A DNA stretch of 64,000 nt. Source: Treponemataceae bacterium (GTDB taxonomy: Bacteria > Spirochaetota > Spirochaetia > Treponematales > Rectinemataceae). Location: the NCBI GenBank assembly GCA_963677895.2, contig CAXXGJ010000018.1:288001-352000 (forward strand), in the 5' to 3' direction. This document shows positions 2,970 to 19,821 of the stretch, one piece after another (position 1 is the stretch's first letter; each line of letters starts with the position of its first letter). Under the pieces are notes generated by a model. The model did no database searches. It was not told the DNA's origin and saw only the letters and a program-made list of their open reading frames with translations. A program made the translations under genes and the position numbers.

Positions 2970-2990
2970 GCCGGACTTTGGTGGATGGAC

Positions 2991-3040
2991 ATGAGGATTC
3001 ATGAGGATACATGAAGATACATGAGGATACATGAGGATAA
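2991..3040 (+). repeat. 5 x 10-bp tandem repeat, consensus ATGAGGATAC
   Basis: atgaggattc atgaggatac atgaagatac atgaggatac atgaggataa. Confidence 0.95.
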
Positions 3041-3044
3041 CGAA

Positions 3045-3737
3045 ATGGGCGAAATAGGTACCGTTCTGGAAAAACCGATGAGCAAGGTAAGCAAAAAGCT
3101 TCAGGTCTACGACATTTTAAAAAAACAGATCGTGCATAACGAGCTCAGGCCCCAGCAGTATCTGAACGAACAGGAGCTTTGCGAGAATCTTGGGGTCAGC
3201 AAGACACCGGTCAGGGAAGCCCTCCAGCAGCTCGAACGGAATCGGCTCGTGGTCATCATCCCCAATAAAGGTTGTTTCGTTTCGACCATCAGCCTCGATC
3301 TCATCCGCGAGGTCTTCGAGATTAGGGAAATCTATGAAAGCGCCGCGGCGCGCATAGCGGCCAGCCTGGATGACAGAAGTCAGTTCGAGGATATTTTTCA
3401 CAACCACGAATCCTTCCGGCTGGAAGATATCGAAAGCGTGAGAAAGTCCCTCCTCTCCGGCTACCATATACACGAGATCATAGTAAACGCGGCGGGCAAC
3501 AGTTTCCTGACCGAATATTACGGAAACATTCTGGATCACATCGTCCGCATACGCATCAATTTCATGTCCAACTTCGACGCCAAACGCCTGCACGAGACCT
3601 GCGAGGAGCATAGGGCCATTCTCAGGGCGATTATCGACGGAAATCCCGACGCGGCGGAGAAAGCGATGAGGAATCATCTGCAGCGCTCGCTCATAACGAT
3701 AGATAAGCTGGTCGGAAATACAAGGGGGAAGATATGA
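3045..3737 (+). CDS. GntR family (FCD) transcriptional regulator
   Basis: HTH LNEQELCENLGVSKTPVREAL; FCD C-terminus EHRAILRAI...MRNHL; start 3045 chosen from the GAGGA RBS. Confidence 0.92.
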   Translation: MGEIGTVLEKPMSKVSKKLQVYDILKKQIVHNELRPQQYLNEQELCENLGVSKTPVREALQQLERNRLVVIIPNKGCFVSTISLDLIREVFEIREIYESAAARIAASLDDRSQFEDIFHNHESFRLEDIESVRKSLLSGYHIHEIIVNAAGNSFLTEYYGNILDHIVRIRINFMSNFDAKRLHETCEEHRAILRAIIDGNPDAAEKAMRNHLQRSLITIDKLVGNTRGKI

Positions 3738-4408
3738 CCCATGTCCTGAAAGCCGTAAACGACCTGGACCCGGCGATGATCGAGGCTTTCAGCCGGCTCG
3801 ATGTGGCGACCGTGTACGAAGCGTCCGGAAGAAAAGGCTTTGTGGAAAAGGCTATTAGGCCCGCCGCGCGCGGCGACCGGATTTGCGGTCCGGCTTATAC
3901 GGTGCAATGCGCGCCAGGCGACAATCTGATGCTCCACAAGGCTCTCCAGAGGGCTCCCGCGGGTTCCGTCATCGTGGCGAGCGTCGGCGGCGCGGGCGAT
4001 TACGGTTATTGGGGCGGCCTCATGGCCACCGCGGCCGTGGCGCGCGGCATTCAGGGACTGGCTATCGACGGCTGCATACGCGATTCGGCCGAAATTGCCA
4101 AGATGGGCTTTCCCGTCTTCTGCCGGGGCTTCTGCATCAGGGGCACGGTAAAATCCACGATGGGCATCATCAACTATCCCGTGAATTTCGGTCAGATGAC
4201 CGTTTTCCCCGGCGATCTCATCCTTGGGGACGAAGACGGCATGGTGATCGTGCGAGCTTCCGAATGCAGGGAAGTGCTCGAAAAATCCCTGAAGCGAGTG
4301 GAGTTCGAGGAAGGCAAGGCGGCGCAGCTCAAAAGCGGCGTAAGCAGCGTCGAGCTGAACAGTCTCGGGAAGGTGTTTGAGTCTCTGGGTTTAGTGGAAG
4401 AAGAGTGA
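3734..4408 (+). CDS. HMG/CHA aldolase (RraA family, LigK/ProA-like)
   Basis: ATVYEASGR, PGDNLMLH, YWGGLM, DGCIRD, GTVKSTMG, PGDLILGDEDG. Confidence 0.88.
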   Translation: MTHVLKAVNDLDPAMIEAFSRLDVATVYEASGRKGFVEKAIRPAARGDRICGPAYTVQCAPGDNLMLHKALQRAPAGSVIVASVGGAGDYGYWGGLMATAAVARGIQGLAIDGCIRDSAEIAKMGFPVFCRGFCIRGTVKSTMGIINYPVNFGQMTVFPGDLILGDEDGMVIVRASECREVLEKSLKRVEFEEGKAAQLKSGVSSVELNSLGKVFESLGLVEEE

Positions 4409-4415
4409 GGCTGAT

Positions 4416-5465
4416 ATGAGAATAGCCGAAGGCTTGCTTCGCGATGCGGCCAAAGAAATCCTGATCGGGCTTGGCGAGGAAGAAGGCAACGCCGAAATCG
4501 CCGCCGAAATCCTGGTTCGATCCGATATGCGCGGCGTAAGCACTCATGGAGTCAACCTTCTTCGGCAGATCTGCAAGCGAGCGGCCGCTGGGATGCTCAA
4601 AATACCTACGAAGGTGGAAATTGTCAGGGAAGACGCCGCCACGGCCGTTCTCGATGGAAACGACGGACTTGGTCAGGTAGCCGGCTATCGCGCTTTGCGC
4701 ATGAGTGTCGAAAAAGCGAAGGGCAGCGGCCTTGGCATGGTTGCCCTGAGACACACGAACAACGTCGGCGCCCTGGGCTACTATACCTCCACGGCGGCTT
4801 CATCATATGGCGTGATTTCGATCTGCATGACCAACGGTAATCCCTCAGTGGCACCTTTTGGAAGCGCCGATCCCTTCTTCGGGACGAACCCGCTTTCCGT
4901 AGGCATCCCTCTAGCGGGCGGAAAACCTATCGTTCTCGACATGTCATCGAGCGTCGTGGCCCGGGGCAAGATCAGGCTGGCCGCCCTGAGCGGCGAAAGC
5001 ATTCCTCTGGGCTGGGCTTGCGACGAGACGGGGGCTCCCACGACGGATCCCAACAAGGCGCTCAATGGTTCCTTGCTGCCGCTTGGCGGCCCTAAAGGCT
5101 CGGGTCTTGCCATGATCATCGACATCATGTCCGGCATCCTCACCGGATCCTCATACGGTCTGAAATTGAAGAGTTTCCATGAGCTCGAAGGTCCCACGGG
5201 GGTGGGAGCGAGCTTTATCGCCATCGATATCGCGCGGTTCATCGATCCCGGGCTTTTCGCCGGGAATGTCCAGGCCTATGCCGAGGAGATCAGGAGCCTC
5301 CGCAAGCAGCCGGGAACCGAGGCGATTCTCCTGCCGGGCGAAGTGGAATTCATGAAGGAAGAAAAGAGCCGGATTTCCGGAATCGAAGTGCCAGAGGCTG
5401 TGGCCAAGGCGATCGATGAAATCCTGGTCAAATCGGGCAGCGCTATCCGAATAGCGGCGGAGTGA
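4416..5465 (+). CDS. Ldh_2 family (type 2 malate/L-lactate, AllD/ComC-like) 2-hydroxyacid oxidoreductase
   Basis: RGVSTHG, GTNPL, DMSSS, GGPKGSGL, LPGE motifs. Confidence 0.9.
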   Translation: MRIAEGLLRDAAKEILIGLGEEEGNAEIAAEILVRSDMRGVSTHGVNLLRQICKRAAAGMLKIPTKVEIVREDAATAVLDGNDGLGQVAGYRALRMSVEKAKGSGLGMVALRHTNNVGALGYYTSTAASSYGVISICMTNGNPSVAPFGSADPFFGTNPLSVGIPLAGGKPIVLDMSSSVVARGKIRLAALSGESIPLGWACDETGAPTTDPNKALNGSLLPLGGPKGSGLAMIIDIMSGILTGSSYGLKLKSFHELEGPTGVGASFIAIDIARFIDPGLFAGNVQAYAEEIRSLRKQPGTEAILLPGEVEFMKEEKSRISGIEVPEAVAKAIDEILVKSGSAIRIAAE

Positions 5466-5474
5466 GAGAGAAGG

Positions 5475-7208
5475 ATGGACAAGATAATGCGGGTGGATAC
5501 GAGGAAGCGGCGGATAGACGTCCTTCCCGTAACGGAAGAAGAGACGCGATGGGGCGGCAGGGGGCTCATAGCCCATGTCCTCCTGAGGGAAGTGCCGCCC
5601 ACCTGCGAGCCCACGGGCAGGCGCAACAAGCTCATTTTCGCTTCCGGACTCCTCGCCGACACGAACGTCACCACGGTGGGCCAGATGTCCATAGGCGGGA
5701 AAAGTCCGCTCACGGGCGGCGCCAAGGAATGCAACATCGGCGGAGGCGCCGGCCGCCGCCTCGCCAGGCTGGGCATCAGGGCTTTGATCATCGAGGATAC
5801 GCCCGCCGAAACCGCCAGAACCGACGTTCTCGAGATCAGGGCTAAAGGCTCCTGTCTTGTCGAGGCGCCCGAACTGAAAGGCAAGCTCGTCGATGAAACC
5901 ATAGCCGCGCTGCGGGCAAAATACGGCGTCAAGGTCGGCATCTTCTGCGTCGGCCCGGCCGGCGAAATGGTCATGTACGCCGCGGGCATCGCCTGTCCCG
6001 ACGACAGCGACGTTCAGATCCGCTTCGCGGGGCGTGGAGGGCTGGGCGCGCTGATGGGATCCAAGGGGATCAAGGCCATCGTCGTCGACGACTCGGGCTC
6101 GACCTACAAGGCTCCCATCCACGACAAAGCCCTTCTTCAGGAAACATCCAAATGGATGGCCGAAGCCCTCCTCAAGGATCCTAAGACCGAAAACCGGAAC
6201 ACCTTCGGCACTCCCGCCATCCTCGCGCTGGCGAGCGCCTCGGGCCTCATGCCCACGCGCAACTTCAGCTCGGGTACCTTTGAAAAGGCCGACGACATAG
6301 CCGGCGAGAGAGTCAGGGAGGAAATCCTCGCGCGCGGCGGCCAGACGGGCAAACCCTGCGTCACGGGCTGCGTCATCCAGTGTTCGAACCTTTTCCCCGA
6401 TAAAACCGGCAAAAAAATCGTCGCCTCGCTCCAGTACGAGAGCATCTGCCTCCTCGGCTCCAACTGCGGCATCGGCAGCCTGGACGACATCGCCGAGATG
6501 AACCATCTCTGCAATCAGGTCGGCGTCGATTCCATAGAGACGGGTGCGGCCATCGGCGTCGCCATGGAAGTCGGCGTCATTCCTTTCGGCGATGCCGAGG
6601 GCGCCAAGGATCTCATTCGCCAGATAGGGCAGGGTACCTGGCTCGGGCGCATCATCGGCCACGGAGCCAAGCTGGCCGGCCGCGTGCTGGGAGCGCGGCG
6701 GATCCCCGTCATCAAGGGCCAGGCTATTCCCGGCTACGACCCGCGCGGCGTCAAGGGCAACGGCGTCACCTATATCACCTCCCCCATGGGGGCCGACCAT
6801 ACCGCGGGCAATGCCTTCGAGACGCTGAAGTACATGGACGTGCTGAAGCCCGACGGGCAGGTGGAGATCTCCAGGAAGCTGCAGATCCGCGCCGCCCTCC
6901 TCGATACCCTCGGCCTCTGTCTCTTCGTGCGGCCTCCCTTCGTGAAGCGGCCCGAGCAGTTCGGCAACCTTCTGAAGGGACGCTACGGCTGGGATCTCTC
7001 CTTCCATGACGTCCAGCTTCTGGCCTGGGACACGATCAAGACCGAACGCGAGTTCAATGAAAGGGCTGGCGTTTCGGAGCGATTCTTCCCCATACCCGAG
7101 TTCATGGAAGACGAACCCCTGCCGCCAAAGAACGCGGTCTTCGACGTGAAAATGGACGACATGGGATCGATGTGGGACGGGGGCTTCACGCCCTTGGATG
7201 ATTTTTAA
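5475..7208 (+). CDS. Aldehyde:ferredoxin oxidoreductase family (tungstopterin) enzyme
   Basis: KSPLTGG, AGRGGLGALMGSK, CVTGCVIQC Fe-S motif, QYES, DSIE, GADH, EREFNERAG. Confidence 0.92.
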   Translation: MDKIMRVDTRKRRIDVLPVTEEETRWGGRGLIAHVLLREVPPTCEPTGRRNKLIFASGLLADTNVTTVGQMSIGGKSPLTGGAKECNIGGGAGRRLARLGIRALIIEDTPAETARTDVLEIRAKGSCLVEAPELKGKLVDETIAALRAKYGVKVGIFCVGPAGEMVMYAAGIACPDDSDVQIRFAGRGGLGALMGSKGIKAIVVDDSGSTYKAPIHDKALLQETSKWMAEALLKDPKTENRNTFGTPAILALASASGLMPTRNFSSGTFEKADDIAGERVREEILARGGQTGKPCVTGCVIQCSNLFPDKTGKKIVASLQYESICLLGSNCGIGSLDDIAEMNHLCNQVGVDSIETGAAIGVAMEVGVIPFGDAEGAKDLIRQIGQGTWLGRIIGHGAKLAGRVLGARRIPVIKGQAIPGYDPRGVKGNGVTYITSPMGADHTAGNAFETLKYMDVLKPDGQVEISRKLQIRAALLDTLGLCLFVRPPFVKRPEQFGNLLKGRYGWDLSFHDVQLLAWDTIKTEREFNERAGVSERFFPIPEFMEDEPLPPKNAVFDVKMDDMGSMWDGGFTPLDDF

Positions 7209-7227
7209 ACCGCGAGGAGCGCAAGGA

Positions 7228-7974
7228 ATGGAGCTGGAAAAAAAGGTAGTCATCGTCACGGGCGCCGGGCTGGGCTTGGGAAAGGCCATCGCCCGGAAGG
7301 TAGCCGCCGAAGGCGCCTTCGTCGCCCTATGGGACATGAATCTGGAATCCGTCCGGAAGCTGGCGAAGGAGCTCGATCCGAGCGGCGTTCGAGCGGCGGC
7401 CTTCGGCGTCAATGTCACCGATGAAGCCGATGTCGTGGCGGCTGTCGCCCATACGGTGGCCAAGTTCGGACGCGTCGACGTGCTCGTGAACAACGCTGGT
7501 ATTTCCCGCCACAAGGTTCTGGAGGAGATGACCCTCGAGCTTTTCGAGCAGGTGATCAAGGTGAACCTCACGGGGCCCTTCCTCTGCTGCAAGGCGGTCG
7601 CTCCCGTCATGAAAAAGCAGAATTTCGGCAAGATCGTGAACATCGCCTCCCTGGGCGGCAGGACGGGACGCCCGGGCGTGGGCGTAAACTACGCCGCGTC
7701 CAAGGCCGGCCTGATCGGCGTCACCAAGTGCCTGGCCAAGGAACTGGGGCCGAGCAATATCTACGTGAACGCGATCTGTCCGGGACCCATTCTCACGGAC
7801 CAGACGAAACAGTATCCGGAAGAAGTCTTCGCGTCGTGGAACGCGGGGAGGGCTGTATCCAAGAACGGCCTGCCCGAAGACATCGGAGACGCCGTGATCT
7901 TCCTTTCGTCCAATAGGTCGGACTGGATCACCGGCGTCACGCTGGATGTCAACGGCGGCATTTTCATCGGCTGA
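7228..7974 (+). CDS. SDR family NAD(P)-dependent oxidoreductase
   Basis: TGAGLGLG, NNAG, YAASK, VNGG. Confidence 0.93.
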   Translation: MELEKKVVIVTGAGLGLGKAIARKVAAEGAFVALWDMNLESVRKLAKELDPSGVRAAAFGVNVTDEADVVAAVAHTVAKFGRVDVLVNNAGISRHKVLEEMTLELFEQVIKVNLTGPFLCCKAVAPVMKKQNFGKIVNIASLGGRTGRPGVGVNYAASKAGLIGVTKCLAKELGPSNIYVNAICPGPILTDQTKQYPEEVFASWNAGRAVSKNGLPEDIGDAVIFLSSNRSDWITGVTLDVNGGIFIG

Positions 7975-8000
7975 CAGAGATCAGTTTCAAGGAGAGAGGA

Positions 8001-8360
8001 ATGGCAGGATTGAAGGTAGTCGATATCAACAAGGTGGAACCTGAGAGGAAAATCCCTCCCCGCGCCTCGTGGATACTCATCTCTGAAAAGACGGTGGGTT
8101 CGCAGAACCTGGCCCTCGGCGTCAACGAAACCGAGCCGGGATCGATGGTTCCCGAACACAGGCACGAGACTGAGGAGGAAGTGATGCTCTTCCTGGAAGG
8201 CGAAGGCAAGTTCATCACCGAGGATCAGGAGATCGACCTGAAGCCGGGCATCTGCGTCTACAACCCGCCTGGGGCTTTGCACAAGATCGTGAACACGGGG
8301 ACGACCAAGCTGAAGTTCGTGTGGGTATACGCCCCTCAGCTCAAGAGCCACAGGCTTTAA
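8001..8360 (+). CDS. Cupin domain protein
   Basis: PEHRHETEEE...G and PPGALHKIVN cupin motifs. Confidence 0.88.
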   Translation: MAGLKVVDINKVEPERKIPPRASWILISEKTVGSQNLALGVNETEPGSMVPEHRHETEEEVMLFLEGEGKFITEDQEIDLKPGICVYNPPGALHKIVNTGTTKLKFVWVYAPQLKSHRL

Positions 8361-8385
8361 GCCGCGGCGAATAAGGAGACCGAAG

Positions 8386-9354
8386 ATGAGCGACTGGAAT
8401 TTGCCGATTCGGGATGGCGGGCACATGGAAAGGCCTTCCAAGATTTATTTCCAGACGATGACCAAATTCGATGCCGAAGAGAGACTCCAGAAAGACGACA
8501 CCATCATCATTCCGATCGGCTCGACGGAGAATCACGGCAAGGCTGGTCCTTACGGCGAGGATACCTACATAGTCACCAGGATAGCGGAAATGGTAGCCAA
8601 GAAAACCGGCTGCACCGTCGCCGAGCCCATGTGGTATGGGTCTCACCCCTTCCATCATATCGGTCAGCCTGGAACCGTTCCGCTTCCCGACAGTGTTTTC
8701 TGCGACCATATCAGGTCGATGATCTCCGGTTTCTGGAACACGGGCTTCAGGAAGCAGATATTCATCAGCATGCATGGGCAGGAGTACGCCATCCCCTCCG
8801 CGATCCAGGAATGGGGCAAGAAGTACCAGATGCCGGCCATCATTATTTTTGTCGATCTCCCCCGCGTGATGGGCCAAGCTCTCATGGATAAAGCGCACGG
8901 CGGTCCTTTCGACTATCCCTTCCAGCATGCCTGCGAGGCCGAGACCTCGGTATCCATGGCTCTTTTTCCCGAAATGTGCCAGCTCGAGCACGCCGAAGAC
9001 ACGACCCCGAAGGGATTTCTTCCTCCCGGCCATGTCGACAAAGGCGGGGATATTTACGGCAACCCCATTCCCGGTCACTGCATCGTCGGCGGTACGGGAA
9101 TCGAGTGTATTACCTTCCCCGAAGGCGTCATCGGAAAGGCGAGCCTGGCCGAGCCGAGCAAGGCCTTCAAGGCGATCGAGAATGTCTGCGATTACCTGGT
9201 GAAACTCCACGACGATATTCTCGAAAAGTTCCCGGTCGGGAAATTGCCGCCGACGGAACTCATGACCCAGCGGAACAAGGAAGAGGTTGAGGCCATTCTC
9301 AAGGGTCCGACGAAGGGCGGCAAGCATCTCTATACGATAGCATGGCCGAGCTGA
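8386..9354 (+). CDS. iolN: Creatininase-family C-C hydrolase, close to 3-dehydro-scyllo-inosose hydrolase
   Basis: YFQTMT, PIGSTENHG, GEDT, GFWNTGFRKQI, HGQE, HACEAETS, FPVGKLPP; matches my recollection of Thermotoga IolN along its length. Confidence 0.75.
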   Translation: MSDWNLPIRDGGHMERPSKIYFQTMTKFDAEERLQKDDTIIIPIGSTENHGKAGPYGEDTYIVTRIAEMVAKKTGCTVAEPMWYGSHPFHHIGQPGTVPLPDSVFCDHIRSMISGFWNTGFRKQIFISMHGQEYAIPSAIQEWGKKYQMPAIIIFVDLPRVMGQALMDKAHGGPFDYPFQHACEAETSVSMALFPEMCQLEHAEDTTPKGFLPPGHVDKGGDIYGNPIPGHCIVGGTGIECITFPEGVIGKASLAEPSKAFKAIENVCDYLVKLHDDILEKFPVGKLPPTELMTQRNKEEVEAILKGPTKGGKHLYTIAWPS

Positions 9355-9413
9355 GCGGCTATGTGTCGGAGATAAAGTCCATCATTTTTTCCAGATTTCA
9401 AGGAGGCACTTGA

Positions 9414-10439
9414 ATGAAGAAACTGTTAATCGTGGCTTTAATGGCAACCATCGCGCTCACGGGCGCCTTCGGCCAAAAAGTGTTCGAGCTCAAGCTCGCG
9501 CACGCGGACTCGACAGACCCGACCGTCTCGCGCAAGCAGGCGCAGGCGCTCGCCTTCGCCAGCCTGGTCAACTCCAGGTCAGGCGGCAGGCTGGTGGTGA
9601 AAGTGTACGGCGCCGGCTCCCTGGGAGCCGAACGCGAGTATGTGGAAGGCATCAAGGCGGGTACCGTCGAAGCCGGCATCGCCTCGGGCGTCATCGCGAA
9701 CTTCTTCCCCACGGCCGCCGTCACCGACATTCCCTTCCTCTTCCCGACAAGCCAGGTGGCCTGGGACGTGATGGACGGACCCTTCGGCGACAAGCTTAGG
9801 GATCTCTTCCTGAAACAGACGGGCATGCGCGCTCTCGCCTTCGCCGAAGTAGGCTTCAGGCATTTCACGAACAATGTGCGCCCGATCAAGAGCCCGGCCG
9901 ATCTCAAGGGACTCAAGATCCGCGTGCAGGAAACCCCCGTCTACGTCAACATGCTGAAAGCGGTTGGCGCCAGTCCCACCCCCGTGGCCTGGACCGAAAC
10001 CTACACATCGCTCCAGACCGGCGTCGTCGACGGGCAGGAAAACCCCGTCGGCTCCATCCTCTCGGGCAAGATCTATGAAGTGCAGAAGTACGTGACCCTC
10101 GACGGCCACGTCTACGGCGTCGACTGGTTCATCATCAACGAGAAATTCTTCAAGAGTTTGCCCGCGGATCTCCAGTACATCGTTCTCGACTCCGCCCAGG
10201 CGAGCAGCACGGTGGGACGCGGCGTCCTCACCTACATCAACGCGGCCGGCATCCAGGTCCTCGTCGACAACAAGCTTCAGATCTATTCCCCGACCGAGGA
10301 AGAAATGGATCAGTTCAAGAAGGCCATGCAGCCCGCCGTCATCGACTGGCTCAAGACCAAAGTGGATCCCGCCCTCATCACCGAGGCGCAGAAAGCCGTG
10401 GCTGACGCCGTGGCGGACCAGAAAGCCAAACTGAAGTAA
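9414..10439 (+). CDS. dctP: TRAP transporter substrate-binding protein
   Basis: Signal peptide; GFRHF, DLKGLKIRV, LQTGVVDGQEN. Confidence 0.95.
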   Translation: MKKLLIVALMATIALTGAFGQKVFELKLAHADSTDPTVSRKQAQALAFASLVNSRSGGRLVVKVYGAGSLGAEREYVEGIKAGTVEAGIASGVIANFFPTAAVTDIPFLFPTSQVAWDVMDGPFGDKLRDLFLKQTGMRALAFAEVGFRHFTNNVRPIKSPADLKGLKIRVQETPVYVNMLKAVGASPTPVAWTETYTSLQTGVVDGQENPVGSILSGKIYEVQKYVTLDGHVYGVDWFIINEKFFKSLPADLQYIVLDSAQASSTVGRGVLTYINAAGIQVLVDNKLQIYSPTEEEMDQFKKAMQPAVIDWLKTKVDPALITEAQKAVADAVADQKAKLK

Positions 10440-10556
10440 GGAACAGCAAAGGTTCTTGACGTGGACGGCGCCTTCGGGCGCCTTCCACGCCTTTCGCCGC
10501 GCCTTCAGACGCGGGAATTCTCGCAATCATGTATAAAGCAAGGAATGGTAGGCAGG

Positions 10557-11069
10557 ATGCGGAACCTCGGTATCGTGGACAAAGCCATAACAGGCTTGGA
10601 AAAGGCTATTGCTTGGATCGTCACCATCATCATCGCCATGATGGTGATCAATATTACCGCGGGCGTTTTCTTCAGGTACGTGCTGGGCAATTCCCTCGTA
10701 TGGACCGAAGAAATGAGCCGCTACCTCATGGTCTGGGCTGGAATGCTCGGCGCCGGACTCGCCATGGCCGACGGAAGCCATGTCGGAATCGACCTGGTTG
10801 TCAATAAATGCCCTCCGGCTCTCGCCCATGCCCTGCGAATTACCGCGAAAATAATCATCCAGATCTTTCTGACGATCGTCATGATCAAATCCTTCGGCTA
10901 TCTCGAAACGCTGAAAATACAGAAATCCTCCGCTATGGAACTGCCGATGGTGATACCTTACCTGTCGGTCAGCGCCGGCGTCATTTTCATGTCCCTGGAA
11001 AATCTGCTGATCATTGTCCGCCTCTTTTTAAGGATAGAAAAGCCCGTAAACGGGGAAGTAGGAATATAA
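10557..11069 (+). CDS. dctQ: TRAP transporter small permease
   Basis: 4 TM; VFFRY, WTEEMSRYL, HVGID. Confidence 0.9.
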   Translation: MRNLGIVDKAITGLEKAIAWIVTIIIAMMVINITAGVFFRYVLGNSLVWTEEMSRYLMVWAGMLGAGLAMADGSHVGIDLVVNKCPPALAHALRITAKIIIQIFLTIVMIKSFGYLETLKIQKSSAMELPMVIPYLSVSAGVIFMSLENLLIIVRLFLRIEKPVNGEVGI

Positions 11070-11070
11070 A

Positions 11071-12351
11071 ATGCTATTGACCGTAATAGGCTTTGTCGTA
11101 TTCATCGTGATAGGCGTCCCCGTCTCCTTCAGCCTGGGCTGTTCCAGCCTGATCTACCTTCTTCAGAAAGGCATATCAGTCGGCCTCATAGCCCAGCGCA
11201 TGTTCACGGGGCTGGACTCCTTTCCCTTCATGGCCATCCCCTTCTTCATTCTCTCCGGCGAGCTCATGAACCATCTTGGAATATCCAAGCGCCTTGTCAC
11301 CCTCGCCGATGTCTTTGTGGGCAGGCTGCGAGGCGGGCTTGGTCACGTCAATGTTCTCACCTCTATGTTCTTCGCTGGCATATCCGGATCGGCGGTCGCG
11401 GACACCTCTTCGGAAGGCCCCCTGATCATCCCCGCCATGATAGCCGACGGCTACGACGCCGATTACGCGGCCGCCATAACCTGCGCCTCCTCGGTGATCG
11501 GCCCCATCATCCCGCCGAGCATCCCTTTCGTCGTGTACTCGCTGATAAGCTCCCAGTCGGTGGCCGCGCTTTTCCTGTCGGGAGTAATCCCGGGCGTCCT
11601 TCTTGGCATCAGCCAAATGATCGTCAACGCCATCATCGCGCACAAGCGCAATTATCCGCGATCGGATCGATGGCCGACCTTCAGGGAAATGGCGAAGGCC
11701 ATAGGGCAGGGCATCGTACCCCTCCTCATGCCCCTCATCATCTTGGGTGGTATTCTGGGTGGCATCTTCACAGCTACAGAGGCAGCGGCTGTCGCTGTCA
11801 TTTACGCCATGTTTATTGGCTTTTTTGTCTATAGGAATCTCAGCTGGAAAGGTCTCAAGGAATCCTTTATCGGAACGGCTAAGACGACAGGTGTCGTCTT
11901 CCTCCTCATCGCCCTCTCCAACGTCTTCAACTGGGCTCTCGTCGTCGAGCAGATACCGCAGACAATGGCCTTGTTCATCGGCAGGACCTTCACAAACAAG
12001 TACATGCTGCTTTTCGCGATCAACATCATGCTCCTTGTCGTTGGCTGCTTCATGGAAGGCACCGCCGCTCTCATAATCCTCGTGCCCATACTTCTCCAGA
12101 TCACTAAGCCATTCGGAATCAGTCCCATCATGTTGGGCACGGTCGTTGTATTGAACCTTATGATCGGCCTCATCACCCCGCCGGTCGGCCTCTGTCTCCA
12201 TATCGCCTGCAATATCGCCAAGCGGCCGATGGAGAAGGTGGCCAAGGCCTTGTGGCCTTTCCTCGTGGCATCGATCGCCACCCTTATGCTGGTGACGTAT
12301 TTTGAACCCCTTTCGATGTTCCTGCCCCGGCTGCTCGGCTACGTTAAATAG
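11071..12351 (+). CDS. dctM: TRAP transporter large permease
   Basis: AIPFFIL, ISGSAVAD, IIPPSIP, FTATEA, TPPVG. Confidence 0.95.
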   Translation: MLLTVIGFVVFIVIGVPVSFSLGCSSLIYLLQKGISVGLIAQRMFTGLDSFPFMAIPFFILSGELMNHLGISKRLVTLADVFVGRLRGGLGHVNVLTSMFFAGISGSAVADTSSEGPLIIPAMIADGYDADYAAAITCASSVIGPIIPPSIPFVVYSLISSQSVAALFLSGVIPGVLLGISQMIVNAIIAHKRNYPRSDRWPTFREMAKAIGQGIVPLLMPLIILGGILGGIFTATEAAAVAVIYAMFIGFFVYRNLSWKGLKESFIGTAKTTGVVFLLIALSNVFNWALVVEQIPQTMALFIGRTFTNKYMLLFAINIMLLVVGCFMEGTAALIILVPILLQITKPFGISPIMLGTVVVLNLMIGLITPPVGLCLHIACNIAKRPMEKVAKALWPFLVASIATLMLVTYFEPLSMFLPRLLGYVK

Positions 12352-12360
12352 GGGGAAGCG

Positions 12361-12774
12361 ATGAAACTGAATCATCTTGGATATGCGGCCAGGGATATAG
12401 GCAAGGCTGTGGACGCTTTTCTGGCGCTTGGCTACGTGAAGGTCCACGAGGAAGTGAAGCACCACCTGCCGAAGAACATGTTCGTCCAGCGCGTGAGGTT
12501 GAACGACACTATCGTGGAAATCATGGCGCCCGCCGATACCGCGAAACCTTCCTTTATATCGGGCGAACTCGCGACGACGAGCGCTCCCTTCATGCTGCAT
12601 CATCTCTGCTACGACGTGGAGGATATCCACTCGACGGTGGAAAGGCTCATGGCTTCGGGTGAGTACAGCGTCTATGAGCCCATAACGAGCGGCGTGTTCC
12701 AGAAAAACCTCATATGTTTCCTGCGGCACAAGGATATCGGGCTCATCGAATTCTTCGAGTGGCCGAAGGCGTAA
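12361..12774 (+). CDS. VOC (glyoxalase/methylmalonyl-CoA epimerase-like) family protein
   Basis: NHLGYA...VEIMAP...HHLCYDVEDI...LIEF metal-ligand pattern. Confidence 0.82.
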   Translation: MKLNHLGYAARDIGKAVDAFLALGYVKVHEEVKHHLPKNMFVQRVRLNDTIVEIMAPADTAKPSFISGELATTSAPFMLHHLCYDVEDIHSTVERLMASGEYSVYEPITSGVFQKNLICFLRHKDIGLIEFFEWPKA

Positions 12775-12789
12775 GGACGAAGCTTAACG

Positions 12790-13494
12790 ATGAGCGACGC
12801 CAAGATCGGATTTCTGCACACTACTCCCTCGACTATCGGGATGGTCGAGGGCTTCATGAAAGCCCGCCTTCCCGGCGCCGCGATTCTGCACATGTATGAC
12901 GGCAATGTTAAAGCAGCCAACTTCATTTCGCCCGTCGGCGTCACGCCGAAGATAAATCTTTTGCGTTGGGCGAACTTCGCCGAGCAGCTCCAGCGCTCGG
13001 GCTGCGACATCGTCGTGTCCTGCTGCAGCCTCATGCCAAGGGCGACTGCTTTCGCGCGGCAGGTCGTGGACATCCCCTGCGTCCAGCTCGACGCCTATCT
13101 TCTGGACCGGGCCGTGGAGAAATATTCGAGGATAGGCGTCATCACGACAACGGACTATACGGCGCCCTTGGTGAAGGAAGGCCTCGAAGCCAGGGCTCTC
13201 GCTGCGGGCAAACAAATTTCCCTGCGCTTCGGGGGGGACAAAAGCGCTCTCGATCTCTTCAACGCGGGCGAATTCGATAAACATGACGAGATCGTATTGC
13301 GTGACGTGGCAAGGCTGGCCGCGAGCGGCGTGGACTGCGTTCTCATGGGACAGATCCCTTTCGGTCTCCTCGAGGAAAAACTGAAAGCGCTGGATCTCGA
13401 AATTCCCGTTCTCTGCGCGGGGGCCGAAGCCTTCGACCGCCTCGGCATGCTGTTGGCCGGCCGCGACGAGCGCCGTACCGCCACGATGCGATGA
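12790..13494 (+). CDS. Asp/Glu/hydantoin racemase-like protein
   Basis: IGFLHT, SCCS, RIGVITT, DCVLMGQ pattern. Confidence 0.65.
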   Translation: MSDAKIGFLHTTPSTIGMVEGFMKARLPGAAILHMYDGNVKAANFISPVGVTPKINLLRWANFAEQLQRSGCDIVVSCCSLMPRATAFARQVVDIPCVQLDAYLLDRAVEKYSRIGVITTTDYTAPLVKEGLEARALAAGKQISLRFGGDKSALDLFNAGEFDKHDEIVLRDVARLAASGVDCVLMGQIPFGLLEEKLKALDLEIPVLCAGAEAFDRLGMLLAGRDERRTATMR

Positions 13495-13510
13495 AGGAAG
13501 TCGAAAACTT

Positions 13511-14143
13511 ATGAGCGTGCTGAATCTGGATTTTGCGGAACCGTTTTTCTCCGTGAAATATATCCAAAATGAAGGCGCCTTCGCCATTGCCGATAAGAGC
13601 ATCGTCTTCAACCTGGCAGAAAAGCCTATCGTTATCAGGGGACAGGGTTTGGGATTCTTCAAATCCACGATCGTCACGAACCTGGCGATCGAGGAGATCG
13701 AGCGCTGCCTTGTCATCGAGGATTTCGAGCGCAATAAAGACCACGATATTCTTTTCGAGCTGATCAAGAAGAAATGGACCATCGTCTACGAGGCTACAAA
13801 GGTTGAGCGACATAAGGGAGTGCGGCTCTACCGATCCCCGAAAACCAAGCTCGGAAACCTGGAAGTGAACATGTGCTTCGCGGAGGGTATACCGCTCAAC
13901 GTTGGACTCCATAGAACGCACTGGGGCGGCAAGCCTTTCAGGGAAGTCCATACGCAGATCCTGGGCTATGGGCGCATGCAGCAATACAGGGAGGAGGATC
14001 TCTCGACTCTCTACCGCGAAGACCCCATGTCTCCAGGCTGCACCCATGAACCGATGTACGACAAAGATTGCGTTTATCCCTGGCACCAGTACGAGACGAC
14101 GACAAAGGCCATTTTCATGGCGACGGAGATGCAGCTCGACTGA
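13511..14143 (+). CDS. Hypothetical protein with C-terminal cupin (possibly aldos-2-ulose dehydratase/isomerase-type)
   Basis: GLHRTH...FREVHTQILGYGRMQ...PGCTHEP...YPWHQY; operonic position. Confidence 0.55.
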   Translation: MSVLNLDFAEPFFSVKYIQNEGAFAIADKSIVFNLAEKPIVIRGQGLGFFKSTIVTNLAIEEIERCLVIEDFERNKDHDILFELIKKKWTIVYEATKVERHKGVRLYRSPKTKLGNLEVNMCFAEGIPLNVGLHRTHWGGKPFREVHTQILGYGRMQQYREEDLSTLYREDPMSPGCTHEPMYDKDCVYPWHQYETTTKAIFMATEMQLD

Positions 14144-14168
14144 AGCCCCGGCGCGTGAGGAGATCGTG

Positions 14169-14981
14169 ATGAAGATGCGACTGAGCTGTTTCGGTTTCAT
14201 AAAAGACCTCGACGATATCGCCGCGGCCGGCTACGACTGCGCCGAGCTCCACATCAGGGAGATCATGGCTTTCGACGACGCCGGATTCAGGGCAGCTCTT
14301 TCCCGCTTGCGCGCATGCGGCATCCCCGCCGAGGTTTTCGACAATCCCATACCCCTCGACTGCCGCGTGTCCGACCCCTCCTTCGACCTCGGTTTTTACC
14401 GCGGCTTCCTCGAGAAGGCCGCTGACAGGACGGCCGAAATGGGCGCCCGCTATTTTGTCTTCGGCAACGGCAAGGCGCGCAGTCTCCCTGTCGATGGCGA
14501 CATCGCCGGGGCGGCGGAAAAGTTCGACGAGTTCTTCTCGAGGCTGCTCGAGATAACCGCGGCGCGTAACATAACTGTGCTCATCGAGCCCCTCGGCAAA
14601 AAACTTTCCAACATCGTGAACAGCCTGCCCGAGGCGGTCGCCTTCATAAAAAAATTCGGCAAGCCCAACCTGAAAACCTTCGTCGATTATCGTTACATGG
14701 TGGAACTGAACAGACCCTTGAGCGAAATCGCGGAGTACGAACCCTGGATCAAGCATGTCCACCTCGACAATCCTCTCTCGGAATTCCCGAGGAGGGTAGT
14801 GCCCAGGCTCGACGACGGCTTCGATTACAGCCCCTTCCTGGAAGCGCTGAAGGGGATTGCCTACAAGGGGATACTCTCCGTCGAGGCCTCCGTCTTCGAG
14901 GATTTTCCCAAGGAGATCGGTGAATGCGTCGGCTTTTTCAAGGCACATGGCATCGAGCCTTACAGGGCTCCAAAGGAGTAG
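14169..14981 (+). CDS. Sugar phosphate isomerase/epimerase (xylose-isomerase-like TIM barrel)
   Basis: AGYDCAE, VFGNGKAR, IEPL, DYRYM, HVHL, SVE. Confidence 0.85.
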   Translation: MKMRLSCFGFIKDLDDIAAAGYDCAELHIREIMAFDDAGFRAALSRLRACGIPAEVFDNPIPLDCRVSDPSFDLGFYRGFLEKAADRTAEMGARYFVFGNGKARSLPVDGDIAGAAEKFDEFFSRLLEITAARNITVLIEPLGKKLSNIVNSLPEAVAFIKKFGKPNLKTFVDYRYMVELNRPLSEIAEYEPWIKHVHLDNPLSEFPRRVVPRLDDGFDYSPFLEALKGIAYKGILSVEASVFEDFPKEIGECVGFFKAHGIEPYRAPKE

Positions 14982-14984
14982 GCG

Positions 14985-16016
14985 ATGAAAGCATTGGTCT
15001 ATCACGGTCCGAGGGATCTGCGGTACGAGGAAGTCGAGACGCCGAAGCCGAAAAAGGGCGAGGTCCTGGTGAAGGTCAGATCCGTCTCCATCTGCGGCTC
15101 CGACCTTTCGGGGTACAAGGGCTGTTCGGCAATGCGCGTCGCCCCCCTCATCATGGGCCACGAATTCTCAGGCGAAATCGCCCAACTTGGCGAAGACGTC
15201 TCGGGGCTGAAGGTAGGCGCGCGGGTCGGCGTCGTCACCAACCTCTATTGCGGCACCTGTCAGGACTGCAAGGACGGTCTCCAAAACGTCTGCGACAACC
15301 GCCATATCATCGGCACGACGATGAAGGCCGGAAGCTGCAACGGCGCCATGGCTGACTATGTGATTGCCCCCGCCGTCAAGATAATGCCCCTGCCCGACTC
15401 GGTCTCCTTCGACGAGTGCGCCCTAGTCGAACCTCTCTCCATATCGTTGCGCGCCACCAAGCACGCCGGGGACATCAAAGGCAAGAATGTCGCCGTCTTC
15501 GGGGCCGGCCCGATCGGCCTCATGGGCGTGATGTGCCTCAAGAGCTTCGGCGCCAAGCGGATCGTCGCCATCGATATCGTGGAAAAGCGCCTCAAGATGG
15601 CTCTCCAGTGCGGGGCGACCGACGTCATCGATTCAAATGACGACGTCCTGGGCATCACCAGGAAGATGACGAACGGCGTCGGCCTCGATGTCGTCTTCGA
15701 CGCGGCCGGCGTCCCCGCCACCGTCAACACGGGCATCGAAATAGCGCGCAACGGCGGCACCCTTCTGCTCGTCGGCATGGCCTCGCCCAAGATGGAAATC
15801 GAGTACAAGCACGCGGTCGTCAAGGAACTGCGGCTCCAGAGCAGCTACATGTACACCTCCGAGATGAGGGAAGGCCTGCAGATGATCATCGACGGCAAGC
15901 TCGACGTGGCGCAGATGATCACATCCCGCTACCCCATGGCGGAAGGTCCGCGCATATTCGAGGAACTCGCCTCCGGAAAGACCAGCGACATCAAGGTGAT
16001 TCTGACGAACGAATGA
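14985..16016 (+). CDS. Zn-dependent polyol/sugar dehydrogenase (MDR)
   Basis: CGSD, GHEFSG, CGTCQDC...C, GAGPIG. Confidence 0.93.
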   Translation: MKALVYHGPRDLRYEEVETPKPKKGEVLVKVRSVSICGSDLSGYKGCSAMRVAPLIMGHEFSGEIAQLGEDVSGLKVGARVGVVTNLYCGTCQDCKDGLQNVCDNRHIIGTTMKAGSCNGAMADYVIAPAVKIMPLPDSVSFDECALVEPLSISLRATKHAGDIKGKNVAVFGAGPIGLMGVMCLKSFGAKRIVAIDIVEKRLKMALQCGATDVIDSNDDVLGITRKMTNGVGLDVVFDAAGVPATVNTGIEIARNGGTLLLVGMASPKMEIEYKHAVVKELRLQSSYMYTSEMREGLQMIIDGKLDVAQMITSRYPMAEGPRIFEELASGKTSDIKVILTNE

Positions 16017-16690
16017 AGCGGGCCGGGCGCTTCTACGGCGAATTCGCCCTCATCCTCGGTCTCTTGATCAACGCCTGCGCCGTGGCGTTTTTCGCGAAAT
16101 CCGATTTGGGGATGTCGACGCTCGCGCTCGCTTCCTTCGTCCTGAACGGCGCATTCCCCAGACTTTCGTACGGGACTTGGAACTACCTCATCCAATGCGC
16201 GCTGATCCTCGTCCTCGTCTTGCTGATTCGGAAAGTGGCGCCGAGCTTCGTCTTCTCTTTTTTCCTCGCCATCGTCTACGGTCTTCTCATCGACCTTTTT
16301 TCTTTTCTTATAGCGGGGCTTCCCGTTTCGATTCCGGCTCGCGCCCTATACTACCTGATCGGCTTTTCGGGTATCGCGATGGGAACGGCTTTTCTCATCC
16401 AAAGCGAAATGCCTATTCTCCCCTTCGATACCTTCATGAAGGAGATCTCGGCGCATTTCCTGATCCCCTACAAGAAGCTGCGAACCTGGTTCGACATATC
16501 GACCATCGTCATCTCGGCTGGGCTTGGGTACTGGAGGCTGGGGCATATCGTGGGCATTGGCGTCGGAACCCTGCTCAACGCCCTCTTTACGGGGCTGGCG
16601 GTATCCCGCGTGGCAAAGATCCTGGATGGACGATTTAAATTCGTGCCGCGTTTCAAATGGCTCGGATCCCTCGCGCCGCGGCGGCCTTAA
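16013..16690 (+). CDS. YczE/YitT-like membrane protein
   Basis: Hydrophobic; SDLGMS, LSYGTW, GIGVGTL; ATGA overlap with upstream gene. Confidence 0.7.
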   Translation: MKRAGRFYGEFALILGLLINACAVAFFAKSDLGMSTLALASFVLNGAFPRLSYGTWNYLIQCALILVLVLLIRKVAPSFVFSFFLAIVYGLLIDLFSFLIAGLPVSIPARALYYLIGFSGIAMGTAFLIQSEMPILPFDTFMKEISAHFLIPYKKLRTWFDISTIVISAGLGYWRLGHIVGIGVGTLLNALFTGLAVSRVAKILDGRFKFVPRFKWLGSLAPRRP

Positions 16691-16699
16691 TAAGTCCTT

Positions 16700-16942
16700 T
16701 CAGCCTCCCCCGATGAGGGGGAAGATTTCGAGGCTGTCGCCGTCGCGAAGGAGCTTGTCGGCGCTCACCTTGTCGCCGTTGCAGATGCATATGGCCACGG
16801 CATCTTCGGGAATTCCTTTTTCGCGCAGGAATTCACGGATCGTCTTTGGTCCCAAAACCTCGTGATCGATCGGATTATCGGGCATCCATTTCCGGAGGGA
16901 CGCGAAAAGGCGCAGCCGAATTCTGTACGCTTCCATCGCCAT
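16700..16942 (-). CDS. MoaD/ThiS family sulfur carrier
   Basis: LFASLR start; LRDGDSLEIFPLIGGG C-terminal di-Gly. Confidence 0.88.
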   Translation of the reverse strand: MAMEAYRIRLRLFASLRKWMPDNPIDHEVLGPKTIREFLREKGIPEDAVAICICNGDKVSADKLLRDGDSLEIFPLIGGG

Positions 16943-16955: not shown

Positions 16956-17777
16956 TTACTCGTTTTTCGAAGCCATCCATTCCAGGACTGTCCTTACCGT
17001 TTCAGGGGCATGCTCGTTAAAGGGGAACAGGTGGCTCGCATCCTCGATGATATGCGTTTCGAAAGATGCCGCCCGGGGCGCGGCCTGGAGCAGGTATTCC
17101 GCCACATGGGTTGGAATGGTCTGGTCGCATTCGCCTAGAATCAGCAAGGTATGGGATTTGAGCCGTTTTAGATTCCTGCGGCAGAGTCGATTCAGACGCA
17201 TCAACTCGGCGGCCGGCGCCACCATCACATCGGCCCAATAATCAGGCTGCAAAGCTTTCCTCGCCGGGCTCTGCATATCAAAAGCGGAGAGCGGGCGGTT
17301 CTGGGGAATGACGCGCCAGAAACGCGCGATCAAGGGAGTCATGTTCATGTACTTTATGGAAATCTCAAAGGCCGGCGCCAAAAGGATCAGCTTCGGCGCG
17401 CCGAAACTTATCGCGATGGAAGAAGCCAACAGCCCACCCATGGAATGCCCCGCGACATGCACAACCTCATATTCCGCGCGTAGCTCGAGATAGGCATCAT
17501 ATGCCCTGCGTGTCCAATCCTCCGCCCTCGTCTGCAGAAAGTCGCGCCTGCAGGTCCCATGTCCTGGATAGCGTGGCGCGTAGACCGCGTACCCCGCGGA
17601 CGCCAAGCCCTGAGCCAAGGGTTCAAGTTCGCCGGGAATACCGCCGAAACCATGAAGCAGCAGCACCGCCTCGCGCGCTCCCTCCGGATCGATCCTGATC
17701 GGCAATGCTTCTTGCACGGGAAGTCTTATTTTTTTTGTCTCGGAATCGATCTGAAGCAACTCGTTTAGACGTGACAT
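16956..17777 (-). CDS. Alpha/beta hydrolase (carboxylesterase)
   Basis: LLHGFGG, PGHG, GHSMGG nucleophile elbow, D and H at C-terminus. Confidence 0.9.
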   Translation of the reverse strand: MSRLNELLQIDSETKKIRLPVQEALPIRIDPEGAREAVLLLHGFGGIPGELEPLAQGLASAGYAVYAPRYPGHGTCRRDFLQTRAEDWTRRAYDAYLELRAEYEVVHVAGHSMGGLLASSIAISFGAPKLILLAPAFEISIKYMNMTPLIARFWRVIPQNRPLSAFDMQSPARKALQPDYWADVMVAPAAELMRLNRLCRRNLKRLKSHTLLILGECDQTIPTHVAEYLLQAAPRAASFETHIIEDASHLFPFNEHAPETVRTVLEWMASKNE

Positions 17778-18207: not shown

Positions 18208-19821
18208 TTAGTCTCTTGTCAGTTGTATCCCTGTAGCTTTGGCGAAGATTCGCGCGAGCTGGTTGAGATATCCACCTTCAGCATGGTAGGCCTGCAACGA
18301 TATGGGGCTTGGGTGAATTAGCGGACCAGGATTTGCGGCCAATCCGCGCGCGCGCTGAGCCAGCGCATCGCGCTCTGATTCTGGCGCAAGCGCGCAAATT
18401 GCCGCCACGGCTGCGCCTGCCGCAGCTCCCGCGTTTGCGATGGGAAGAACTGGCTTGCGCCAGATTGCGGCTATCCTTTTGAGAATTCCGATGCTGGCAG
18501 TCGCTCCTCCCGTCACCGTGATGACGTCTCCATGACCAGTAAATTCTCTAGACGCAAGCGCCACAAGCCCTAATGTTGAGTCAACACATCCGGCATAATC
18601 CGTATCGAATTGTCCTGTTTTTCCGATATCAAGCGCAGGTGAGCAAGGAAAGCTTTCCGAAGTGCTCTGCAGCAGCCGCATTATAGTTCCTGGTTCAACG
18701 GTCGCAAGGGATTGCTCGGCTCTCCCGAAATCGTCTGCGTCGCCATAATGTGCGCGGATGCTCTCCAGGGTAAGGGATCCGTTTGTTCTGCAACCGAAGA
18801 GAAAAGGCCTGCCTAGACCATCATACATCGCATTGGCGGAGACGAGGGGGCGGGTTCCTTCTCCCATGATTACAAAACTGGTGCCAAGGGAGAGCAATGC
18901 CCCGGAAGCCAGAACCTTGGTCTGGGGGTTGTCGCCGGAGGATGCGATGATAAAACATTCCGGAGGGATACCATATCGTTCGGTAAAGTAGGCGGCAATC
19001 GTCCCGGTTTTGGAGAGCGGATGAGCGATTTCGGGAAGTCTGGATTTTAGGCCCTTCGTTCCTCCGCGTATTTTCCCGGCATTTGCGGCCGCCGCGATCA
19101 ATATTGGATCCCAACTTCGGCTTTCCCAATTCATTAAGCTTGTTCCGGAGCCGTTTCCCCAGTCTATCGGAGCATCCGGATTGCCCGAGAGAATTGCCGC
19201 GAGAAATGAAGATATCAAATGTATACGGTATGTTTTCTTATAGCTATCGGAGGATAGCTTCGCTGTACGCGCGAGTACGGCTCCTGAGAATCTCGCGGGG
19301 CTGTCCGAGCCGGATCGCGAGGTAACCGCTTCCGCACCTCCAAGTTCCTTCCTGATCGCATCAGCCTCGGGCTGCGCGTTGGAGCTCATCCAGATGGGTG
19401 CCCGGTCGTATGCCAAACCCGGGCAGACCTGATCAGCGAGAGACCTGGATAGAGCGAGTCCGGAGCCTTCTCGCCTGAGAGCGGCGATAGCCTTGCAGCC
19501 CGATTCTCCCACCCATACTTGGCCATGCTGTTGTGCAGAGAGATTTATTGCCGCGAGCCGGGATAATGCTTCTTGTGGCAGATCGGAAAAAATTGCGTCG
19601 AGCGCTTCAAGAAAAAGCTCCACAGGTTGGGATGCTTCCCCCTTTTCGATCGGGAACAGGATTGGCGCTCCAGAACCAAGACCTAAGTGCGATAAACGAG
19701 GATCTTCGCGATATTTGACTTTAGCTTCCGCGACAGTCGTGAAAGTTTCGCGGTCAAGGATAATGGCTGTAGTGCTCTGTGTGCTGGAATCAATGCCGAG
19801 TACATAGCTTTCGTCGTTCAT
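18208..19821 (-). CDS. xylB: FGGY kinase, eukaryote-type xylulokinase
   Basis: LGIDSSTQS, AQQHG, PIWMS, RFSG, LISSF, GDNP, SLGTS, TGGA. Confidence 0.8.
   Translation of the reverse strand: MNDESYVLGIDSSTQSTTAIILDRETFTTVAEAKVKYREDPRLSHLGLGSGAPILFPIEKGEASQPVELFLEALDAIFSDLPQEALSRLAAINLSAQQHGQVWVGESGCKAIAALRREGSGLALSRSLADQVCPGLAYDRAPIWMSSNAQPEADAIRKELGGAEAVTSRSGSDSPARFSGAVLARTAKLSSDSYKKTYRIHLISSFLAAILSGNPDAPIDWGNGSGTSLMNWESRSWDPILIAAAANAGKIRGGTKGLKSRLPEIAHPLSKTGTIAAYFTERYGIPPECFIIASSGDNPQTKVLASGALLSLGTSFVIMGEGTRPLVSANAMYDGLGRPFLFGCRTNGSLTLESIRAHYGDADDFGRAEQSLATVEPGTIMRLLQSTSESFPCSPALDIGKTGQFDTDYAGCVDSTLGLVALASREFTGHGDVITVTGGATASIGILKRIAAIWRKPVLPIANAGAAAGAAVAAICALAPESERDALAQRARGLAANPGPLIHPSPISLQAYHAEGGYLNQLARIFAKATGIQLTRD

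Follow-up and report, generated by a model that had tools for sequence, protein, structure and literature searches.

A conserved gene cluster around an IolN-like hydrolase, in a Treponemataceae genome and other bacteria, as a candidate for oxygen-independent quinate catabolism

Which ring compound is broken down by a compact operon that combines an IolN-like hydrolase with an aldehyde:ferredoxin oxidoreductase (AOR) and an aldolase, and could its ring be opened without oxygen? The question is raised by a 64,000-nucleotide stretch of a Treponemataceae bacterium (assembly GCA_963677895.2, contig CAXXGJ010000018.1, positions 288,001 to 352,000), referred to here as the window; coordinates are window positions unless a contig or locus is named. 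Sixteen open reading frames (ORFs) run on the + strand with gaps of −4 to 117 bp, from the start of a GntR regulator gene at 3045 to the end of a DUF6198 gene at 16690. A sequence-only reading of this DNA had described 16 packed, co-oriented genes with a MoaD gene converging on them; ORF calls and profile searches agree, and all of its family labels hold, that of the second cupin through a structure match. We put at about 0.6 the probability that the operon encodes an oxygen-independent catabolism of quinate via 3,5-didehydroquinate, an IolN-type ring hydrolysis, CHA (4-carboxy-4-hydroxy-2-oxoadipate), and an aldolase. We infer each substrate and reaction from what was observed, namely, genes, families, conservation, co-occurrence, and residues.

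In the proposed pathway, a TRAP transporter recognized by profile matches (DctP, 9414 to 10439, with its best structure matches at E values of about 1e-57; DctQ, 10557 to 11069; DctM, 11071 to 12351; all +) would import the acid. Two dehydrogenase steps would then give the cyclic 2-hydroxy-1,3-diketone 3,5-didehydroquinate, one catalyzed by a short-chain dehydrogenase/reductase (SDR; 7228 to 7974, +; adh_short, with YxxxK at 156) and the other by a Zn-dependent dehydrogenase (14985 to 16016, +; profile match) aided by a TIM-barrel epimerase/isomerase (14169 to 14981, +; AP_endonuc_2, with weak PDB matches to ketose 3-epimerases and AsbF). The IolN-like creatininase-fold C-C hydrolase (8386 to 9354, +) would open the ring hydrolytically, in a retro-Claisen reaction that leaves a terminal ketol diacid, and a small metal cupin (8001 to 8360, +; Cupin_2) would turn the ketol into a 2-hydroxyaldehyde. 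Oxidation to a 2-hydroxy triacid would be carried out by the AOR (5475 to 7208, +), with reduced ferredoxin as a product of that step, or by an aldehyde dehydrogenase (ALDH) in other genomes. An Ldh_2-family 2-hydroxyacid dehydrogenase (4416 to 5465, +; PF02615, under all NCBIfam subfamily cutoffs) would form CHA, and an RraA-family HMG/CHA-type aldolase (3734 to 4408, +; best PDB match 3NOJ, E value of 7.8e-46) would cleave it to pyruvate and oxaloacetate. Shikimate would probably be fed in through 3-dehydroquinate.

The conservation of these genes was assessed in IolN-family loci drawn, with their flanks, from genomes, metagenomes (the best 80 of 527), relatives, and a sample of 401 Bacillota genomes. 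ORFs were called in 143 sources; in 130 of them a hydrolase could be aligned across 250 residues or more, and the other 13, of which 9 had truncated copies and 4 consisted of flank only, were left out. Locus groups were defined by the hydrolase tree, independently of neighboring genes; the tree was a quick IQ-TREE run of 133 copies, rooted at the midpoint and built without Thermotoga maritima. The window hydrolase, which scores 524.6 with the IolN model NF041098 (cutoff, 245), belongs to a 60-row clade, B1 (SH-like approximate likelihood ratio test [SH-aLRT] support, 100), nested in a 75-row clade, B (99). Clade-specific substitutions include M94Q, N128S, A220G, and W230G; the copy of the PDB that was searched contains distant creatininases but no structure of the IolN family.

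The aldolase, Ldh_2, AOR, cupin, and hydrolase genes are complete in 31 of the 34 B1 loci with at least 5.2 kb of upstream sequence (the exceptions are L057, L063, and L077). Lack of conservation as a unit, which the sequence-only reading had named as one result that would count against it, is therefore not what was found, although the unit takes in only about 11 of the 16 operon genes. Many B1 contigs are short, so that raw counts per 60 loci are limited by contig ends: the cupin is present in 53, the AOR in 45, Ldh_2 in 39, the aldolase in 38, and the SDR in 35, whereas orthologs of these five occur in 0 of the 55 loci outside clade B. The genes for the VOC, racemase-like, second cupin, M24, MoaD, and DUF6198 proteins each occur in 2 to 8 of the 60 B1 loci and are accessory.

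Clade B2, the 15-locus sister of B1, retains the cupin (10/15), AOR (8/15), and Ldh_2 (6/15) at the thresholds used but has no orthologs of the aldolase or SDR. There (loci L168, L170 to L172, L174, L175, L188, L125, L090, L091, and L193) the partners are a CoA transferase and a nitroreductase, a transporter of the tricarboxylate type, and malic enzyme, together with fumarate/tartrate hydratase and a 306-amino-acid protein; the last of these proteins (L188:3273-4193) had no Pfam, NCBIfam, or PDB match. Because hydrolase, cupin, AOR, and Ldh_2 are kept in both clades, we treat them as one module, and in B2 this module would belong to a second pathway.

Evidence on the end of the pathway comes from the aldolase. 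It exceeds the PRK09262 cutoff (203.8 against 179) and falls under that of TIGR02798, the ligK model (193.6 against 304.5). Equivalents of R40, N71, H75, R123, D124, G144, T145, K147, R195, and E199 are kept, and D102 is replaced by G; among the cluster aldolases, N71, H75, R123, D124, G144, T145, R195, and E199 occur in 38 of 38 and K147 in 37 of 38. The change at D102 gives G-X20-R-D-X2-E, which we take to be a recognized motif of the family. Excerpts of PMC5065237 propose that N71 and K147 bind the extra carboxylate of CHA. Of the three aldolase paralogs of this genome, two share N71 and K147 and none keeps R195, so the residue test discriminates only in part. For aldol cleavage the substrate must be a 4-hydroxy-2-oxo acid; its hydroxyl would be the one that quinate carries at C1. 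No oxygenase family was matched among the cluster genes, in agreement with the sequence-only reading; on another contig of this genome, one gene is weakly matched to the LigB family (C2:96689, E value of 4e-21), and none was found in genomes G021 or G762.

An aldehyde intermediate is indicated by the AOR and by what stands in its place. The protein has both family domains (AFOR_N and AFOR_C) and the Fe-S cysteines (motif Cys 295/299/303), and its best structural match is 1AOR (E value of 2.5e-64); from family membership the metal would be tungsten. In G762 (80% complete) and G759 (92% complete) the cluster is present without any AOR match genome-wide; G762 has a PF00171 aldehyde dehydrogenase between dctM and a pair of aroQ genes, and G759 has a 95% identical copy ahead of its own aroQ pair. 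This swap, seen in two genomes of one genus, points to an aldehyde as the intermediate. In two assemblies (L029:7152-8820 and L216:13059-13924), apparent frameshifts interrupt the AOR gene, which could reflect sequencing error or decay.

The dehydrogenases occupy two slots. The Zn enzymes of B1 form three clades of their own (Zn clades A, B, and C), apart from the enzymes of inositol clusters, and the window enzyme belongs to Zn clade B. The SDR (35 loci) never co-occurs with Zn clade C (11 loci), nor does Zn clade A (21 loci) with Zn clade B (20 loci); these mutually exclusive pairs imply two dehydrogenases per complete cluster, with the window SDR in slot 1 and its Zn enzyme in slot 2, which matches two ring oxidations. 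The TIM barrel accompanies Zn clade B in 16 of its 16 loci and Zn clade A in none, a pairing that places its step before ring opening. The sequence-only reading had made the TIM barrel the isomerase that acts after cleavage, an assignment that we reject: it is present in 16 of 60 loci and always with Zn clade B, compared with 53 of 60 for the small cupin, which is better suited to the role. The cupin carries the motif HxH..E..H in 69 of 69 homologs, it is found in none of the 55 other IolN loci, and it holds the place that IolO has in inositol clusters; it is thus likely the ketol (keto-to-aldehyde) isomerase. PDB and Atlas searches with the SDR, Ldh_2, and this cupin yielded generic families only.

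A link to quinate in particular is suggested by genes of the shikimate pathway (aro genes). They flank 14 of 60 B1 loci (710 kb) and 0 of 70 others (927 kb), with a nominal P value of 8e-6; among loci of at least 15 kb, the figures are 9 of 17 and 0 of 35. The locus sample is biased to relatives of the query, and because its loci are kin, with some rows identical, the P values given here overstate the link. For 11 of the 14, a profile match or an alignment gave confirmation, and with Pfam a shikimate dehydrogenase was recognized in L078 as well. Among the linked genes are those of shikimate dehydrogenases and of dehydroquinases of both types (II and I); they stand both upstream and downstream of the core and include aroQ in 9 of the 60 loci. 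The association was also compared across all 69 genomes of the family, with thresholds of at least 65% identity for the B1 hydrolase and at least 78% for a divergent aroQ copy. The hydrolase was found in 9 genomes, the divergent aroQ in 12, and both in 8 (nominal P value of 5e-7), so that the divergent copy is present in 8 of 9 cluster genomes and 4 of 60 others. Two apparent exceptions, G775 and G778, have gntR, aldolase, Ldh_2, and AOR genes adjoining the aroQ pair at a contig end. In G019, the cluster is accompanied by one canonical aroQ about 10 kb beyond its end.

In this genome (G000, 93% complete), the aroQ pair lies on another contig in a tandem cassette with a TIM-barrel paralog (C2:169088-170809; L204:9083-10809, −), and within the family the occurrence of this cassette follows that of the cluster. 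Copy A is canonical. In copy B the Arg and Tyr of the lid are retained, but Phe (Thr in L029) takes the place of the His101 equivalent and Ser that of the Asp88 equivalent (G001 retains Asp). His101 is the proton donor of type II dehydroquinase and Asp88 the general base from the neighboring subunit, according to excerpts of PMC6011038. The two copies are fused as one ORF in L191, and counterparts of two acidic active-site residues, D173 and E239, are missing from all 5 of the TIM-barrel paralogs that were checked. In each of the five cluster genomes tested, aroC is present and a type I dehydroquinase shares a single frame with a shikimate dehydrogenase, and the aroQ pair is on that account surplus to biosynthesis. 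The same frames weaken the alternative that aroQ is a mere housekeeping neighbor, which still applies to L070 and L074. Our guess is that A and B form a mixed oligomer that hydrates 3-dehydroshikimate for shikimate entry.

Taken over the chain as a whole, the quinate proposal of the sequence-only reading fits the core and gains from the aro linkage, the ALDH in place of AOR, the two dehydrogenase slots, and the kept aldolase residues; its isomerase is replaced, and quinate is still arrived at indirectly.

A number of observations weigh against a quinate pathway. The window's cluster has no AroE-type quinate dehydrogenase, and neither its SDR nor its Zn dehydrogenase resembles a characterized quinate enzyme. 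The intermediate itself, 3,5-didehydroquinate, could dehydrate to gallate. N71 and K147 are also kept in two of the three unrelated aldolase paralogs of this genome. The window is without an aro gene, its genome's aroQ pair being at C2:169872-170809; 46 of 60 B1 loci show no aro gene in the sequence examined, three aro matches (L036, L081, and L089) come from tblastn alone, and L070 and L074 resemble housekeeping aro operons. Genomes G001 and G758 carry the divergent aroQ with no cluster cupin found. In L063 and L077 (L077:7456-19549), no cupin, AOR, Ldh_2, or aldolase gene is close to the clade hydrolase; the genes around it encode Zn dehydrogenases, an amidohydrolase, an NADH:flavin oxidoreductase, and a type I dehydroquinase, joined in L077 by a shikimate dehydrogenase, a TIM barrel, and an HMGL-like protein. 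The quinate fermenters Ilyobacter insuetus and Propionivibrio limicola are not named among the matches listed, their genomes being outside the searches.

These observations leave room for other explanations. The NCBI name of the hydrolase implies an ordinary myo-inositol cluster, and the protein is indeed far above the IolN cutoff; the company that it keeps makes this reading hardly credible. IolO stands beside the hydrolase in 0 of 75 clade B loci (0 of 60 in B1) versus 28 of 55 outside, and IolG in 0 of 60 B1 loci versus 8 of 55 outside clade B. The Zn dehydrogenase fails the IolM cutoff (213 against 450) and the TIM barrel that of IolO (44 against 300), and the separate Zn clades agree with this. 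No IolG is present in the window's cluster, and the best match in its genome is 147.6 against a cutoff of 355; IolG above the cutoff is absent from G020 and G021 as well, though G019 and G762 do have it. Loci outside clade B include importers of the sugar ABC type, whereas import here would be by TRAP. The database name "inosose hydrolase" probably misleads for clade B1.

A different ring compound, such as a carboxylated cyclitol or a deoxy-inositol (quercitol), might instead be degraded by the same chemistry to end in a 4-hydroxy-2-oxo acid, with the aro link being peripheral. The use of the module by B2 with CoA transferase, a tripartite tricarboxylate transporter, and malic enzyme, and with aro genes in 0 of 15 loci, implies that the module serves more than one substrate, and Gfo/Idh/MocA dehydrogenases join seven loci. 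We nevertheless think this unlikely for B1, to which the aro link is specific and where it holds at the genome level; the aldolase is closest to the CHA enzyme, and Arg170 of DctP, in a K-I-R motif, suggests an acid as the ligand. It is also improbable that quinate is the substrate and the steps after ring opening differ, with the SDR oxidizing the terminal alcohol to a 2-oxoaldehyde for the AOR or a glyoxalase-type cupin or VOC protein, or with an HMGL-family lyase splitting the ketol directly in some gut-type loci. The position of the SDR gene between those of AOR and cupin in an operon otherwise in reverse pathway order would fit this, as would L077, which has the HMGL-like gene ahead of the hydrolase and no downstream core, but B2 keeps cupin, AOR, and Ldh_2 with the SDR in 0 of 15 loci, the SDR is replaced by a Zn enzyme adjoining the other ring dehydrogenase, and AOR and Ldh_2 would be redundant. 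Entry from gallate or 3-dehydroshikimate, by reduction, AroQ hydration, and reoxidation to the same diketone, would make the cluster the oxygen-free parallel of the route that takes gallate to CHA aerobically. We regard such entry as very unlikely, since a 1,2,3-trihydroxybenzene is not favorably reduced by NAD(P)H and aroQ is in only 9 of 60 B1 loci, even though the two oxidoreductases and the dehydroquinase that it needs are all present or linked. Reductive dearomatization followed by retro-Claisen opening is established for phloroglucinol according to excerpts of PMC10470551. Quinate or shikimate thus appears to be the best-supported substrate.

The closest parallel is the T. maritima myo-inositol pathway (TM0411 to TM0416; IolG, IolM, IolN, and IolO), reportedly first described by Rodionova in 2013, in which a cyclitol is also oxidized twice to a diketone and the ring is hydrolyzed by an IolN-family enzyme. 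The present cluster is without IolG, IolM, and IolO, has its hydrolase in a separate clade, is served by TRAP import, and is linked to aro genes, and its product would go to the cupin, AOR, Ldh_2, and CHA-type aldolase. The T. maritima intermediates were taken from excerpts of PMC5931981. The cluster works like the Thermotoga route and is not a member of it. With the protocatechuate 4,5-cleavage and gallate pathways (LigK/GalC, 3NOJ) it would share its probable last step and end products, and active-site residues are kept; it differs in having no dioxygenase, tautomerase, or hydratase families and in its aldolase, with D102 replaced and a score under the TIGR02798 cutoff. Aerobic quinate and shikimate degradation proceeds through quinate dehydrogenase, dehydroquinase, and dehydroshikimate dehydratase to protocatechuate. 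The likely substrates, 3-dehydroquinate, and nearby dehydroquinases would be common to both, but the proposed pathway avoids aromatization and oxygenases; the route of quinate and shikimate fermenters is likewise said, from work of Brune and Schink in 1992, to avoid aromatic intermediates. The anaerobic phloroglucinol pathway of Clostridium scatologenes (excerpts of PMC10470551) resembles the proposal in its oxygen-free retro-Claisen opening of a cyclic 1,3-diketone and differs in its "cyclase"-family hydrolase, phenolic substrate, and other downstream enzymes; that paper mentions neither quinate nor IolN.

Other features of the locus stand outside the core. The GntR/FCD regulator (3045 to 3737, +; PF00392 and PF07729) is preceded by a sigma-70-like promoter match (2915 to 2943, +) that agrees at 10 of 12 consensus positions and is a lead only, as promoter-like sites in the region are at chance level (6 versus 5.8 expected), as are terminator counts. 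Directly 5′ of the gntR start, positions 2989 to 3039 hold a 10-bp unit repeated 5.1 times, with an ATG and a GAGG element per copy; no tandem copy of the unit was found in any related locus compared. Upstream of the range covered by the sequence-only reading, an M24/creatinase-fold protein (1681 to 2805, +; PF00557 and PF01321), often a companion of the cluster, has an ortholog (at least 45% identity) in 5 of 60 B1 loci, and in L105 and L106 the gene lies within the operon, adjoining aroE/aroQ. The accessory genes inside the operon encode a VOC-family protein resembling methylmalonyl-CoA epimerase (12361 to 12774, +; Glyoxalase_4; 6/60), an Asp/Glu/hydantoin racemase-like protein (12790 to 13494, +; PF01177; 5/60), a stand-alone protein of the aldos-2-ulose dehydratase C-terminal type (13511 to 14143, +; 6/60), and the DUF6198 membrane protein (16013 to 16690, +; profile match; 2/60), with the MoaD/ThiS sulfur carrier converging from 16700 to 16942 (−; PF02597; 8/60). 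The protein at 13511 to 14143 has no Pfam match; its predicted structure (pLDDT, 92.9) matches 4A7Y, aldos-2-ulose dehydratase, with a TM score of 0.68 (0.31 to 0.39 for the other structures listed), an Atlas search gave PF18637, present on 33% of Atlas cluster members, as a lead, and by this modeled fold the protein is a cupin.

The TRAP system is replaced by an ABC importer or a different TRAP system in some loci. The clusters of G019 and G020 are bordered by esterase genes and by another TRAP system (L045, L046:17466-18392, and L044:17491-19467), and one may speculate that the esterases release quinate from esters such as chlorogenate. A gluconolactonase-family gene adjoins the hydrolase or TRAP genes in L065:5148-5975, L128:1952-2779, and L093; its product could act on a lactone such as quinide. 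G000 has nine creatininase-family matches over several contigs, one of them above the IolN cutoff and one with an internal TGA (C25:158250-158999). Beyond moaD, and co-oriented with it, an alpha/beta hydrolase gene (16956 to 17777, −) with no homolog in the related loci compared is probably outside the unit. A neighboring xylulokinase-like/Zn-dehydrogenase/sugar ABC cluster of lower GC content (~46%; 18208 to 24954) is separate from the operon.

The IolN family occurs in just 4 of 301 sampled Spirochaetota genomes, so that the distribution of the cluster is patchy; no clade B1 hydrolase was found in the 301 Chloroflexota genomes searched (best identity, 57%), and there was no plasmid match at an E value of 1e-40. 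Among the matches listed, close homologs, mostly identified by sequence rather than gene neighborhood, are named from Spirochaetota, Bacillota, Desulfobacterota-type bacteria, Synergistota, Atribacterota, Planctomycetota, Verrucomicrobiota, and NC10, and those from Bacillota include the gut genera Blautia, Faecalicatena, Robinsoniella, and Oscillibacter. The cluster is common to many oxygen-avoiding bacteria, in which it most likely breaks down quinate or shikimate with ring opening by water instead of oxygen. A search of the open-access literature, with subscription journals outside its scope, gave no paper that names the enzymes of an anaerobic quinate route or describes this pathway, and what is conserved here is apparently an undescribed catabolic pathway assembled from known enzyme families.

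Bacteria that ferment only quinate or shikimate are known (Brune 2002, as cited in excerpts of PMC10512730). We consider it a tentative proposition, at somewhat less than even odds, that the operon encodes a widespread hydrolytic route and is the missing genetic basis of anaerobic quinate and shikimate fermentation without aromatic intermediates, with a ferredoxin-reducing AOR in a fixed catabolic step; that an undescribed type II dehydroquinase feeds it, made of two subunits of which the second has lost the catalytic His and Asp; and that the operon represents one branch of a broader hydrolase-cupin-AOR-Ldh_2 module, used by the sister clade for a second ring compound. Quinate and shikimate are abundant plant acids, and the cluster supplies a concrete, assayable list of enzymes. 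If the proposal is true, quinate could be converted to pyruvate and oxaloacetate by a path free of oxygen, a clade of AORs would gain a specific function, and the name "inosose hydrolase" would be corrected for a large protein clade.

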